Origin: a virus
Taxonomy: Duplodnaviria; Heunggongvirae; Uroviricota; Caudoviricetes
Reading direction: 5' to 3' (one strand)
Length of the DNA: 25,280 nucleotides
IMG/VR virus record: IMGVR_UViG_2713896907_000003
Numbering within the stretch: the stretch's first letter is position 1; every line of letters begins with the position of its first letter. Positions 1 through 25,020 of the stretch are shown in pieces. The notes beneath the pieces are model-generated. The model searched no databases and had not been told where the DNA came from. It saw only the letters and a list, made by a program, of their open reading frames with translations. The translations under genes were made by a program, and so were the position numbers.

Positions 1-2711
<2,711 letters not shown>

Positions 2712-13770: not shown

Positions 13771-17448
<3,678 letters not shown>

Positions 17449-17477
<29 letters not shown>

Positions 17478-17979
17478 CCGCAAATTCCTTCATTTTTTCA
17501 GCAGATTCAACGCATTTATTAGCTCCCTTCGCAACAAGCTCTTTCAGATAAGCCAATTGTCTGCCTGTCAACTCAGGGAATTTTCTTTGCATCGAAAGCG
17601 GAATACTGTCCAGAACAGATGCCAGTTCTCCGGATAACCGGGACAGTGCAAAAACAGAGAAAGCGGTATCAATCACTTTATGCTCTGCAACCTGGTTTTT
17701 TAACCGCTGAGCAATAGCCTGTTCTTCCGTCAGATTAACCCTGGCCTGAAGTAGCCTTTCCTCAAGGTTATTTTCACCATCTGAAGATTTCTGGTTTTGC
17801 TGACGTCGCTCGCGATCTATCTCCAGTACAGTTTTAACGTCATAGAAAACCTCTCTCCCCCGGCGCTCAACAGGAGGGACACCCCATTTATCAAATGCCT
17901 GTACTGAGATACCGATGGAGGAGGCCATGTCGCTTTTATTCAATAAAAAGGCCACAGCTCCTCCATAAACCACCGGCAA
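17449..17979 (-). CDS. Nu1: Terminase small subunit (Nu1-like)
   Basis: 176-aa ORF directly upstream of A with a 29-bp overlap. The central region (DTAFSVFALSRLSGELASVLDSIPLSMQRKFPEL) is lambda Nu1-like; the N-terminal HTH region and C-terminal tail differ. Start uncertain: TTG at 17979, no clear RBS. Confidence 0.7.
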
Positions 17980-17987
17980 AAAAGCAA

Positions 17988-18122
17988 TACAACAACCCCG
18001 TTTTTTGTAAAACCCTCTGATTTTACATGCTTTTTCGTATAAGAAAGCTCATCAGGTTGTTGTATTTGTTTTTCTTTCTTATTACTTATCAAGTAGATAT
18101 ATCAAACGATAAAACAACAACC
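17988..18122. repeat. cosB-like repeats: three copies of (T/A)ACAACAACC, the middle one inverted
   Basis: TACAACAACC at 17988-17997, its reverse complement GGTTGTTGTA at 18056-18065, AACAACAACC at 18113-18122, all between the Nu1 start and cosN. Confidence 0.45.
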
Positions 18123-18149
18123 ACCACCTCAAAAAAACTCATAAATAGC

Positions 18150-18185
18150 GAAAACCCGCGAGGTCGCCGCCCCGTAACCTGCAGG
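18150..18185 (-). other. cos site (cosN), 12-nt cohesive end GGGCGGCGACCT at 18161-18172
   Basis: Minus strand reads GGGCGGCGACCTCGCGGGTTTTCGCTATTTAT, matching the lambda left end as recalled; the plus-strand side ends ...CTGCAGGTTACG. Confidence 0.85.
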
Positions 18186-18379
18186 ATCGCCGGAAAGGAC
18201 CCACAAAAATGATAATAATTTCATGTGAATAATGCTCATCACAACGATGTGTGTGAGCCATCAAACCACGACAAACAGTTAATTATGCAGCAGATATCGT
18301 ATTAATTGATCCGCATCAAGTTAACGTAAAAGCAACTTCAGACAATACAAATCAGCAACACTGAATATGGGGCAACCTT

Positions 18380-18604
18380 ATGTCATCGAAGAACAGAACC
18401 CGAAGAACAACAACCCGCAACATCCGATTTCCAAACCAGATGATTGAACAAATTAATATTGCTCTTGACCAGAAAGGTTCAGGGAATTTTTCAGCGTGGG
18501 TTATTGAAGCCTGCAGAAGAAGATTAATTAATGAAAAATATTCTCAATTTTTACCCAACAAAGACAAACACGACCAGAGCACCTGTTCAGACAGGTTTAC
18601 TTAA
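18380..18604 (+). CDS. ylcI: YlcI-like small protein (DUF3950; possible ribbon-helix-helix DNA-binding protein)
   Basis: 74-aa plus-strand ORF MSSKNRTRRTTTRNIRFPNQMIEQINIALDQKGSGNFSAWVIEACRRRL..., resembling the DLP12 YlcI family as recalled; followed by a hairpin terminator. Confidence 0.55.
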   Translation: MSSKNRTRRTTTRNIRFPNQMIEQINIALDQKGSGNFSAWVIEACRRRLINEKYSQFLPNKDKHDQSTCSDRFT

Positions 18605-18684: not shown

Positions 18685-18999
18685 TTAGCATTTTTTTGAC
18701 CGCGCGTTTCCGGACGTATTCTGTTCTCCTGTCCCTTTATATCGTCGGAATACCCGCCGCTCTTCAAATCCCATTCCCAACTCAGAATGTAGTCTGTTGA
18801 CCGCTTGTTTTATTTCTGTCAGGTTCACCGGTGAAACCGGAGTCCGGCGCGCCTTACGCAAACACTCTGCTCGTTTCTGTGCCGCCACTTTTCTTTTCTG
18901 GTCATCACTTAGCTGTACCATCACTTTTGCCCATCGTTCAGCTGCTCTCCGGTACAGTCCTTTTTTCTCCAGACATTCTGCCAGGTGATCATGTAGCAT
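18685..18999 (-). CDS. PerC/Pch-family transcriptional activator-like protein (phage cargo)
   Basis: 104-aa ORF with a strong GGAGG RBS; the N-terminal LEKKGLYRRAAERWAKVM motif resembles the PerC family as recalled. Preceded by a ~460-bp AT-rich leader. Confidence 0.5.
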   Translation of the reverse strand: MLHDHLAECLEKKGLYRRAAERWAKVMVQLSDDQKRKVAAQKRAECLRKARRTPVSPVNLTEIKQAVNRLHSELGMGFEERRVFRRYKGTGEQNTSGNARSKKC

Positions 19000-23549: not shown

Positions 23550-23624
23550 TGGAGCGGGTGGCGGGAATCGAACCCGCATCATCAGCCTGGAAGGCTGAGG
23601 TAATAGCCATTATATGATACCCGC
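23550..23624 (-). tRNA. tRNA with anticodon loop CUUCCAG (anticodon UCC, glyT-like scaffold)
   Basis: 75-nt cloverleaf folded by hand: acceptor GCGGGUA/CACCCGC, perfect T-arm GCGGG-UUCGAUU-CCCGC, perfect anticodon stem UCAGC/GCUGA, CCA encoded. Confidence 0.75.
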
Positions 23625-23627
23625 ATA

Positions 23628-23703
23628 TGGTGCCGACTACCGGAATCGAACTGGCGACCTGATGATTACAAGTCAGTTGCTCTACCATTGGAGCTAAACC
23701 AGC
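23628..23703 (-). tRNA. tRNA-like gene, aberrant (weak anticodon stem; loop CUUGUAA; isotype uncertain, possible pseudo-tRNA)
   Basis: 76 nt with perfect D-arm GCUC/GAGC, T-loop UUCGAUU and CCA end, but the anticodon stem pairs at only 3 of 5 positions and the T-stem has one mismatch. Confidence 0.5.
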
Positions 23704-23708
23704 ATGTT

Positions 23709-23783
23709 TGGCGGGACAGCGTGGACTCGAACCACGATAAGAAGGTTAACAGCCTTCCGTAATGATCTTTATACGACTGACCC
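23709..23783 (-). tRNA. tRNA with anticodon loop CUGUUAA (anticodon GUU, Asn-like by sequence)
   Basis: Perfect T-arm CGUGG-UUCGAGU-CCACG and anticodon stem GAAGG/CCUUC; acceptor stem has one mismatch; CCA encoded. Confidence 0.65.
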
Positions 23784-23837: not shown

Positions 23838-23870
23838 TAATTATGGCTAAATGGATAATTGCATGTCAAG
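23838..23870 (-). promoter_or_regulatory. Late promoter pR'-like (sigma70 -35 TTGACA, 18-nt spacer, -10 CATAAT) overlapping the 3' end of Q
   Basis: Minus strand: TTGACA (23869-23864), spacer tgcaattatccatttagc, CATAAT (23845-23840); position just after Q mirrors lambda pR' (established knowledge). Confidence 0.45.
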
Positions 23871-24365
23871 GCCTTTAACAGCAACATGCTTAACTTTCTC
23901 AACACGTTTACGCATTTTGAAAGCATTTTTCATTGGCTGGTATAAAACAAATAATGACGCTTTCAGGATGTCGTCAATTTCGTTTCTACAGGTTGCCAGT
24001 GAAGGTTTTCTCCATCCCTCGCCACCACGTCCACACATCTTGCGTGGCTTTGCAGTCGCGTGATAGTAGGATGCAATTGCTCGCTTAGATGAACCATGAG
24101 CGTAGTAGCTGAGGAGGATGCCGAAGGCTTTCTTGTCAATGTACATGACGGAATCGACGACCTGAGAAATCAACATTCCATCATCATCATTACACATTGG
24201 CCTTGTCATAACTCTTCCCGGCTCTACGCTCTCCATGAACTTAGCTATTACGCTGCTCATGCGCTTTTCCAGACGACCTGAATAAACCCATGCGCCCCAC
24301 AGTTCAAGCCAGCCATTCAGCCACTCGTGCTGTTCTTTGGTGAGGTTTAGTTCTCTTATGCCCAC
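23847..24365 (-). CDS. Q: Late-gene antiterminator Q (non-lambda Q family)
   Basis: ORF upstream of the late promoter, tRNAs and lysis genes; LELWGAWVYSGRLE motif resembles the QuuD-type Q family as recalled. Start placed at GTG 24365 behind a GGGAGAAGG RBS; the track's longer form (start 24422, GTG, no RBS) overlaps ninG. Confidence 0.65.
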   Translation of the reverse strand: MGIRELNLTKEQHEWLNGWLELWGAWVYSGRLEKRMSSVIAKFMESVEPGRVMTRPMCNDDDGMLISQVVDSVMYIDKKAFGILLSYYAHGSSKRAIASYYHATAKPRKMCGRGGEGWRKPSLATCRNEIDDILKASLFVLYQPMKNAFKMRKRVEKVKHVAVKGLDMQLSI

Positions 24366-24408
24366 GCGCCTTCTCCCTTGTGATTTGGAATGTGTTTTAC
24401 TGAGAACG

Positions 24409-25020
24409 TCATGCAGCCTCACTTCTGCTGTTTCGCAGTTTTTTAAGTTTCTGTTGATACTCCGCCTTGATGGCCCTGCACTCTTCGACAGTCCAGCGAT
24501 GGCGGTTATGGTCTGATTCGATTTCCTCTACTGCTTCCTGCCCGATGCGGTTAATCAGTTCGACACGATACGGAACGAGATTTCCGCTTTTATGCTGGTT
24601 GCACACCACGCATTGCTTGTGAATATTGCGTTCATCAAACCGGAGTTGAGGTGCCGCAGCAGTTGTCCGGTAATGCCCGGCATCCCACTGAGCAGACGTG
24701 AGCGTTCCGCACGAGATACATGGTAAGTCGCGGTCTCTTTCTCTGATGAAGGCGTTTACGGCTTGTTGGGCTTGTTTAATCCAGTAACTGCGGGGCTTTA
24801 AGGCGAGTTTTCTAATCTTAAGTTTATCTTTCTGTTTCTGCTCCTCTCGTCGTCGTTTCTTCTCTGCTGCTTTTTCCGCTTTTTCGCGTTCTTTGCTTCG
24901 TCGTTCGAGTGCTATCTTGGTTCCACACTCTGGAGAGCACCACCACTGATTAGCGAATGCAGGATGAAACCATTCCCGACATTCATCGTTTTTACATCGT
25001 CTTCGCGCTGGTTTAGCCAT
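24409..25020 (-). CDS. ninG: NinG / Rap recombination-associated structure-specific endonuclease
   Basis: 203-aa [50 protein letters not shown]... matches lambda NinG as recalled; GAGGAAGAAG RBS. Confidence 0.9.

Follow-up and report, generated by a model that had tools for sequence, protein, structure and literature searches.

A predicted N15/Monarch-type packaging module, probably acquired by recombination, in a lambda-like prophage

The closest described systems to the locus studied here are the packaging regions of phage N15, of the Monarch prophage group and of phage lambda. In N15, the R3 site (bp 48-59) has been defined by block mutations that reduce packaging 10- to 100-fold (PMC4669245). 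The Monarch prophage group, with an N15-like specificity and a complex cosB, was described in 2015 by the Feiss laboratory (PMC4669245); its members have the N15 recognition helix, an N15-like R3 and a tripartite cosB with a site for the integration host factor (IHF), and no rR2 (PMC4669245; PMC9026076). A shared packaging specificity of Monarch and N15 was suggested at that time (PMC4669245). For lambda, a hairpin model of cosB has been proposed (PMC4669245, PMC9026076), and cosQ is known as a conserved 7-bp element (PMC4669245). Here we analyze the cos site and the adjoining terminase genes, Nu1 (TerS) and A (TerL), of the virus record IMGVR_UViG_2713896907_000003, a stretch of 25,280 bp that is called the window below. 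Coordinates are relative to the window, in which lambda orientation corresponds to the reverse complement, and the cassette is read on the minus strand.

Based on these systems, we propose that the locus is very probably a packaging module with N15/Monarch recognition parts that was acquired by recombination and consists of two separable modules. The specificity predicted for it has already been described, and the locus exemplifies, in a clean form, a modular swap of a known kind. The first 45 amino acids of TerS are 80% identical to those of N15 gp1 (VAFLLNKSDMASSIGISVQAFDKWGVPPVERRGREVFYDV in the window and MAVLLNKSDMASSLGISVQAFDKWGVQPVEKRGREVFFDV in N15, nearly identical), and the recognition helix ISVQAFDKWGV is the same in both proteins. 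The R3 core GGTTGTTGTT occupies bp 50-59 in N15 and bp 51-60 in the window (N15 R3 GAGGTTGTTGTT at bp 48-59, window GTGGTTGTTGTT at bp 49-60), and the window R3 thereby matches that of N15 at the cohesive-end distance of N15 and lambda. This class had gone unrecognised in a preliminary description of the locus. The helix is identical to that of N15 and the repeat core is the N15 R3 (PMC4669245). As in the Monarch subgroup, cosB is tripartite and the TerS gene carries no rR2: no match to the 10-mer, with up to one mismatch, is present within 17449-17955. The cassette would accordingly be a Monarch-type member of the N15 specificity class, a placement made by the published group criteria.

Neither of the other specificities compared fits the locus. 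Lambda specificity is characterized by CGTTTCC-type R sites and the helix SIRTIQNWQEQG, and the lambda DNA-binding domain shares only 29% identity with that of the window. PhiR5_1, which is presumably 21-like by comparison with 21 gp1, has CATGTC-type repeats, the helix VDIRTIDRWQTQG and a DNA-binding domain that is 24% identical to that of the window. TerS is a member of the gpNu1 family (Pfam Phage_Nu1, PF07471, 75.7 bits with a cutoff of 30, residues 6-148), and a PDB sequence search gives marginal matches of residues 3-56 to the lambda gpNu1 structures 6HN7 and 1J9I (E 0.5-0.9). Compared to lambda Nu1, the identity amounts to 36% overall, with 29% for the N-terminal 45 amino acids, 39% for the middle and 25% for the last 40 amino acids. 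At the codon where the window TerS starts with GTG, the allele of locus L004 has ATG.

The cos site itself is lambda-like on its left side. The 12-base cohesive end is that of lambda, bp 1-34 of cos match lambda in 34/34 positions with the identical stretch extending to 18139, and the conserved 7-bp cosQ lies about 30 bp left of the predicted nick site. The lambda counterpart of cosQ has the coordinates 48473-48479. In the 300 bp left of cosN, 85% is lambda-like.

On the other side of cosN, and ahead of the TerS start, the complex cosB comprises R3, the candidate IHF site I1, an inverted R2 and R1. As exact 10-mers, the repeats are TACAACAACC at 17988-17997 (+), TACAACAACC at 18055-18064 (-) and AACAACAACC at 18113-18122 (+), i.e., in direct-inverted-direct arrangement, and the repeats stretch to about 19 nucleotides with the pattern GGTTGTTGTwTTnnTTTTT. 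Of the 9-mer core ACAACAACC, the 25,280 bp contain four copies where 0.24 are expected, none of 100 shuffles gave four copies, and three of the four copies fall in a span of 135 bp. When eight cos sites are aligned (columns 75% identical on average), R3, R2 and, in the seven sites that have it, R1 stand out as invariant blocks between variable spacers: R3 is invariant in 8/8 sites, the core of R2 likewise, and R1 is kept in 7/7 tripartite copies. The start-to-start spacing of R3 and R2 is 58-59 bp in all six scanned loci that have both sites exact (59 bp in the window, compared to about 60 bp in lambda), while the R2-R1 spacer differs by 10-12 bp in length between alleles. The fixed R3-R2 spacing fits the lambda hairpin model, in which an IHF bend at I1 sets R3 beside R2 for a TerS dimer.

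On the lambda-orientation strand, an A-rich tract comes after the candidate IHF site I1, whose match is as good as that of lambda's own I1, which likewise has one mismatch to the consensus in the same pattern scan. The TTGATAA of the window I1 is kept in the copies of E. coli, E. albertii and the satellites described below, but not in loci L011 and L013. Another one-mismatch IHF-like match at 18100-18112, which overlaps the 3' extension of R3, was given no role. The fourth exact copy of AACAACAACC is found at 18406-18415 in the orientation of R3 and R1, about 240 bp left of cosN and inside a DUF3950/YlcI-like open reading frame (18380-18604, +). This GGTTGTTGTT copy was considered as an R4-like site of the cassette and rejected, since lambda has the same sequence at the equivalent place and the copy is thus not tied to this type of cosB. 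N15-specific terminase has been reported to be able to package lambda DNA.

The association of the repeat with this type of TerS extends far beyond the window. We surveyed one genome per species, selecting loci solely by the TerS peptides LLNKSDMA and GISVQAFD, and found GGTTGTTGT upstream of the TerS gene in all 25 loci obtained (24 exact, one with a single mismatch). These loci belong to Escherichia, Pluralibacter, Trabulsiella, Erwinia, Aeromonas, Oceanimonas, Oceanisphaera, Halomonas/Vreelandella and Pseudomonas, along with one contig labelled Chryseobacterium. By exact matching of the core, three loci have all three sites and one has only R3 and R2, while the others have a single R3 near the gene start as in N15; the Pluralibacter locus has an additional inverted copy with one mismatch. 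Among phages, N15 also carries GGTTGTTGT upstream of TerS, Pseudomonas phage F10 has the motif directly upstream of the TerS start, and in the isolated cos phage MD8 of Pseudomonas, bp 51-60 of the record read GGTTGTTGTT. The motif is lacking in controls whose DNA-binding domains are different: PhiR12_2 has CCGGACATG three times, PhiR5_1 has its own triple repeats, and bp 1-230 of lambda contain none of this motif. The conservation of the repeats with the Nu1 type, which the preliminary description had set as a test, is hence borne out by the 25 loci together with N15, F10 and MD8 on the one hand and by lambda, PhiR12_2 and PhiR5_1 on the other hand. The pair GIS(V/P)QAFDKW/GGTTGTTGTT is, as judged from these comparisons, a deeply conserved putative recognition pair in Gammaproteobacteria. 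In the Pseudomonas, Halomonas, Aeromonas and Oceanimonas prophages and the phages F10 and MD8 (L014-L029, L031, L032), the cohesive ends differ, yet the helix is retained, as is a single GGTTGTTGTT upstream of TerS.

The edges of the putatively replaced block are sharp. Sliding identity and junction alignments with lambda place the left edge at 18138/18139 and the right edge between 17395 and 17368. The right junction falls inside the conserved coding stretch MTAVEWAD...YYLPKESAY, which makes homology available for crossing over. Within gpA, the 48% identity to lambda concerns the first residues up to the EWAD motif, whereas after residue 28 the amino acid identity to lambda gpA is 99%; GpA_ATPase (PF05876, 172.8 bits) and GpA_nuclease (PF20454, 248.5 bits) are both recognized, and in the first 552 nucleotides beyond gpA (W and the start of B) 540/552 are identical to lambda. 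A block of 54% identity that is flanked by lambda DNA on the cosN side (34/34) and on the gpA side (97.8%) is the signature of a recombinational swap, and supports the view that about 744 bp around the packaging start were replaced by recombination in a lambda-like prophage. Nu1 and gpA are both full-length and intact, with the usual overlap of 29 nucleotides. All elements that the preliminary description had listed for this region are confirmed: the lambda-type cosN, the three 10-mers in direct-inverted-direct arrangement between cosN and Nu1, the non-lambda N-terminal region of Nu1, and the divergence of the first ~28 residues of A in front of a lambda-like remainder. Its statement that the last ~25 residues of Nu1 diverge is correct and can be refined, as the divergence runs along the whole of Nu1 and not just its ends. 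All features are listed in Table 1.

Table 1. Elements of the cos-terminase locus and neighboring features in the window
Feature	Coordinates	Strand	Remarks
Nu1/TerS gene, GTG start, 168 amino acids	17449-17955	-	same 507-nt call by PGAP in loci L003 and L004
TerS DNA-binding domain (predicted), codons 1-45	17821-17955	-	
TerS C-terminal 40 amino acids, predicted TerL-binding	17452-17571	-	
gpA/TerL gene, 641 amino acids	15552-17477	-	29-nt overlap with the end of Nu1
gpA first 28 codons, non-lambda, putative TerS-interaction segment	17394-17477	-	48% identical to lambda
gpA remainder (ATPase and nuclease), lambda-type	15552-17393	-	codon 29 to stop, 1802/1842 nt (97.8%)
Putative replaced block, ~744 bp	17395-18138	-	54% identical to 760 bp of lambda
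cosQ GGGTCCT, packaging-termination element	18196-18202	-	same sequence and cosN distance as lambda
cosN cohesive end GGGCGGCGACCT	18161-18172	-	12/12 identical to lambda left end
R3, predicted TerS binding site, GGTTGTTGTTTTATCGTTT in its extended form, with the core GGTTGTTGTT (cos bp 51-60)	18104-18122	-	exact repeat; N15 R3 core
I1, candidate IHF site TATCAAGTAGATA	18087-18099	+	one mismatch to WATCAANNNNTTR; pattern scan; between R3 and R2
R2, inverted predicted TerS binding site, GGTTGTTGTATTTGTTTTT as read on the window plus strand	18055-18073	+	repeat
R1, direct predicted TerS binding site, GGTTGTTGTATTGCTTTTT	17979-17997	-	repeat
PerC-family transcriptional activator homologue	18688-18999	-	148.8 bits; between lysis genes and cos
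SASA-esterase protein, 651 amino acids	21079-23031	-	between tRNAs and lysis genes
tRNA cluster, three genes	23553-23783	-	downstream of the Q antiterminator gene (23850-24422)
Two open reading frames (246 and 422 amino acids)	84-2105	+	no Pfam match; window edge

Comparison of four terminase segments (TerS N-terminus, TerS C-terminus, TerL N-terminus and TerL body, amino acid identities in this order) reveals that the parts do not share one history. The window differs from lambda in the first three segments (29, 25, 48 and 99%), whereas N15 differs from lambda mainly in the first (29, 78, 68 and 88%). Between the window and L004 only the TerS N-terminus is nearly identical (98, 48, 55 and 66%), L004 and PhiR12_2 show the reverse (13, 98, 71 and 99%), and L004 shares with PhiR5_1 mainly the TerL body (24, 55, 52 and 97%). 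Similarly, N15 and the Erwinia locus L012 have the same DNA-binding domain and R3 as the window, yet a lambda-type TerS C-terminus and TerL N-terminus. From these segment identities, the DNA-binding domain appears to go with cosB and the TerS C-terminus with the TerL N-terminus, the two pairs reassorting separately. Across 25 taxa, the identities of the TerS C-terminus and the TerL N-terminus are correlated (r 0.60; partial r 0.51 once the TerL body is accounted for; p of about 5e-4 by permutation, a value that is only indicative), while those of the DNA-binding domain and the TerS C-terminus are not (r 0.07). The packaging region is thus best described as two predicted modules, cosB with the TerS DNA-binding domain and the TerS C-terminus with the TerL N-terminus. 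This pattern agrees with the established terminase domain map, whose domain logic has been known since the lambda-21 hybrids. The TerS of PhiR12_2 (2426-2935 of L033) is a natural chimera with its junction inside the gene, having an unrelated N-terminus (VATQTEVARHLSLTDRQLRRLQKLPG...) and a C-terminal half that is 98% identical to that of L004.

A mechanism can be modeled by homology to the characterized terminases. Dimers of the TerS winged helix-turn-helix, with the helix ISVQAFDKWGV, would bind the R sites of the GGTTGTTGT type. R3 would position TerL to nick the lambda-type cosN at sites 12 bp apart, an IHF-type bend at I1 would bring the inverted R2, 59 bp off, beside R3, and R1 would add affinity. 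The C-terminal ~40 residues of TerS would hold TerL by its first ~28-48 residues; such a contact would explain why this pair was replaced together, whereas the ATPase/nuclease body of TerL stayed lambda-type. The crossovers that created the locus would have taken place just right of cosN (cos bp 34/35) and in the MTAVEWAD...YYLPKES stretch of gpA, at codons ~29-38.

Other explanations have to be weighed against this reading. Taken literally, the preliminary description implies a single indivisible unit in which cosB, the whole of Nu1 and the gpA N-terminus always travel together, as it spoke of a cassette that is swapped as a unit. This holds for the window when compared to lambda, since the 744-bp block was replaced in one piece here and in the ~22 E. 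coli genomes with the same allele; as a general rule it is contradicted by the mosaics N15, L012, L004 and PhiR12_2, in which the two modules reassort, and by the near-zero correlation between the DNA-binding domain and the TerS C-terminus, and we consider it improbable. Divergence in place, by rapid evolution of lambda sequences with no import, would account for the facts that Nu1 and cosB are recognizably homologous to those of lambda, with the same architecture and a best-conserved middle part of Nu1. Yet, each edge is marked by a fall in identity from 98-100% to 54% over no more than a few bases, other genera and L004, with its much more distant TerL body, have the same DNA-binding domain and repeats, and graded intermediates between the lambda type and this cosB/Nu1 are absent among the E. 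coli matches listed, which leaves this explanation hardly credible.

Equally hard to sustain is the idea that the three repeats are due to chance or serve another factor, e.g., a transcription regulator, without relation to TerS. The fourth 10-mer, which lambda has as well, does illustrate that the motif can occur without this function. However, the excess of copies over expectation, the co-occurrence with one TerS helix type in 25/25 loci, the conservation of the 58-59 bp spacing, of the orientation pattern and of the distance from the cohesive end, and the mutagenesis of the N15 R3 (PMC4669245) all argue against it. Scans for promoters and terminators yielded nothing in the cosB interval, and the Rfam search found only tRNAs elsewhere in the window and none in cosB, so that a transcriptional or RNA role is unsupported. 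Finally, the cassette might be a non-functional relic in a decaying prophage, given that the allele is known from prophages only and from 0/50,697 phage records. This is unlikely because Nu1, gpA, cosQ, cosN and the repeats are all intact and the module is found in ~246/5426 complete E. coli genomes and in satellites; moreover, its R sites are invariant amid diverged spacers, indicating ongoing selection.

Several points nevertheless weigh against the proposed acquisition of a functional N15/Monarch-type module. Binding, nicking and packaging by this TerS are deduced by homology, and the specificity shared by Monarch and N15 is itself only "suggested" in the 2015 work. R3 is offset by 1 bp relative to N15. 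I1 deviates from the IHF consensus at one position, and is absent from L011 and L013, the two most distant tripartite loci. The sample behind the correlations was picked for one type of DNA-binding domain and its members are related. No isolated phage among the 50,697 records carries this TerS allele, from which follows that function is predicted from prophages only, and the prophage could be defective elsewhere.

The exact allele of the window (at least 95% identical) is found in ~22-23 of 5426 complete E. coli genomes, among them those of the strains 2015C-4136CT1 and EC12, and E. coli has two allele groups whose TerS proteins are 71% identical to each other. The module of cosB and DNA-binding domain is more widespread (246/5426 complete E. 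coli genomes, ~4.5%, at ~80% identity or better and a coverage of at least 80%), and is also present in O111:H8 and O145 strains. Among the 50,697 phage records, megablast of the region detected lambda-like flanks only, with a coverage of at most 26%, and tblastn detected no TerS closer than 48-49% amino acid identity. The Monarch-type module is consequently known from prophages only, and its presumed function is deduced by homology to N15.

In about 50 complete E. coli genomes, the match to the query is confined to the cosB part, and no terminase gene adjoins it. The two examined are satellite islands of the EcCICFT073 family: L035 (NZ_AP022811; 4935-5160 and 5634-5760), which adjoins phoQ, and L036 (NZ_AP045179; 3935-4160), which adjoins yejO. 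They encode a primase or helicase, SSB, and homologues of capsid protein E as well as of decoration protein D; L035 additionally encodes an Rpp-like helix-turn-helix protein. Both islands have two cos sites facing each other, one Rpp-linked and the other a complete Monarch-type set of cosQ-cosN-R3-I1-R2-R1, which is kept in full at an overall identity of ~75%. The second cos of CFT073 (L037 8080-8340; NC_004431 1388080-1388340) has a tripartite cosB with CATGTCCGG/CCGGACATG repeats of the PhiR12_2 type (L033 2150-2425). For EcCICFT073, two cos sites had been reported in which no phage cosB was identifiable (Fillol-Salom et al., 2018; PMC6092414). This suggests that the second cos of these islands may carry a swappable cosB that is matched to a helper class.

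We tentatively extend this in two directions, although we consider this extended reading less likely than not. The TerS C-terminus and TerL N-terminus of the window may represent a pairing specificity orthogonal to those of lambda and 21, in which case lambdoid terminases would have two or more codes that reassort independently, the first addressing DNA and the second the partner subunit. GGTTGTTGT/ISVQAFDKW may be an unusually ancient and widely exploited code, ranging from Escherichia to Pseudomonas and Halomonas and taken over by satellites of the EcCICFT073 family for a second cos that is swappable (Monarch-type in some islands, CCGGACATG-type in CFT073). If true, satellites could use helpers of a given class directly, without redirection by Rpp.

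With respect to its setting, the locus is part of a lambda-like prophage or phage segment that is reversed in the window. The minus-strand order is Q antiterminator, three tRNAs, SASA-esterase protein, holin, lysozyme, Rz, PerC-like gene, cos, Nu1, A, W, B and other head and tail genes. Two tRNAs of the cluster are identified by ARAGORN as Gly-tcc and Asn-gtt, and the third, at 23631-23703, by Rfam. The 651-residue protein combines DUF1737, a SASA sialate O-acetylesterase domain and DUF6645; we take its position to be that of the nanS-p-type esterases in the late regions of Stx phages. The two open reading frames at the window edge are encoded on the strand opposite to the tail genes.

In summary, the lambda-21 and lambda-N15 hybrids, from which the terminase domains were defined in the laboratory, have a clean natural counterpart in the window, and this counterpart shows at which places packaging specificity can be exchanged by recombination while the motor is left undisturbed. 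Beyond the description of 2015, the N15/Monarch code turns out to be frequent among the prophages of E. coli (~4.5% of the complete genomes, with enterohaemorrhagic O111 and O145 strains among them), conserved in distant Gammaproteobacteria and present on satellite islands. As packaging specificity decides which phages, cosmid-like elements and pathogenicity islands are mobilized by which helper, a catalogue of such codes helps to predict transduction routes. The current understanding of lambda-like terminase function is left unchanged.

Compared with the known systems, the EcCICFT073-family islands share the lambda-type cosQ and cosN with the window, and some (L035, L036) the full Monarch-type R3-I1-R2-R1; they differ by having neither TerS nor TerL and by their extra Rpp-linked cos in opposite orientation. 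Lambda agrees with the window in cosQ and cosN, in the order and orientation of the sites, in an R3-R2 distance of ~58-60 bp, in gene order, in the Nu1-A overlap and in the gpA body, while its R sequence, its recognition helix and most of its TerS are different, as is the R2-R1 spacing (67 bp in the window, ~41 bp in lambda, counted on the sequences). N15 has the same recognition helix and R3 core and a closely similar DNA-binding domain, yet, in contrast to the window, its cosB is simple (R3 only, gene 1 from bp 89), its rR2 is remote, bp 9 and 12 of its cohesive end are different, and both the TerS C-terminus and the TerL N-terminus are of the lambda type (78 and 68% identical to those of lambda, 25 and 58% identical to those of the window). 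The Monarch group resembles the window in a lambda-like cos, a tripartite R3-I1-R2-R1 with inverted R2 (I1 being a candidate site in the window), an R3 strongly matching that of N15, the N15 helix and no rR2 in the TerS gene; what sets the window apart is that the module is joined to a gpA body with 97.8% nucleotide identity to lambda. Among the hybrids, the lambda-21 hybrid 21hy33 (cos, whole gene 1, chimeric 2/A gene) has the same junction layout as the window, and in 21hy51 and N15hy4 the junctions fall within TerS (PMC4669245), as they do in the natural mosaics N15 and PhiR12_2. Whereas the lambda-21 and lambda-N15 hybrids were engineered or selected in the laboratory, the window is a natural recombinant by all appearances, and of the N15/Monarch type instead of the 21 type.

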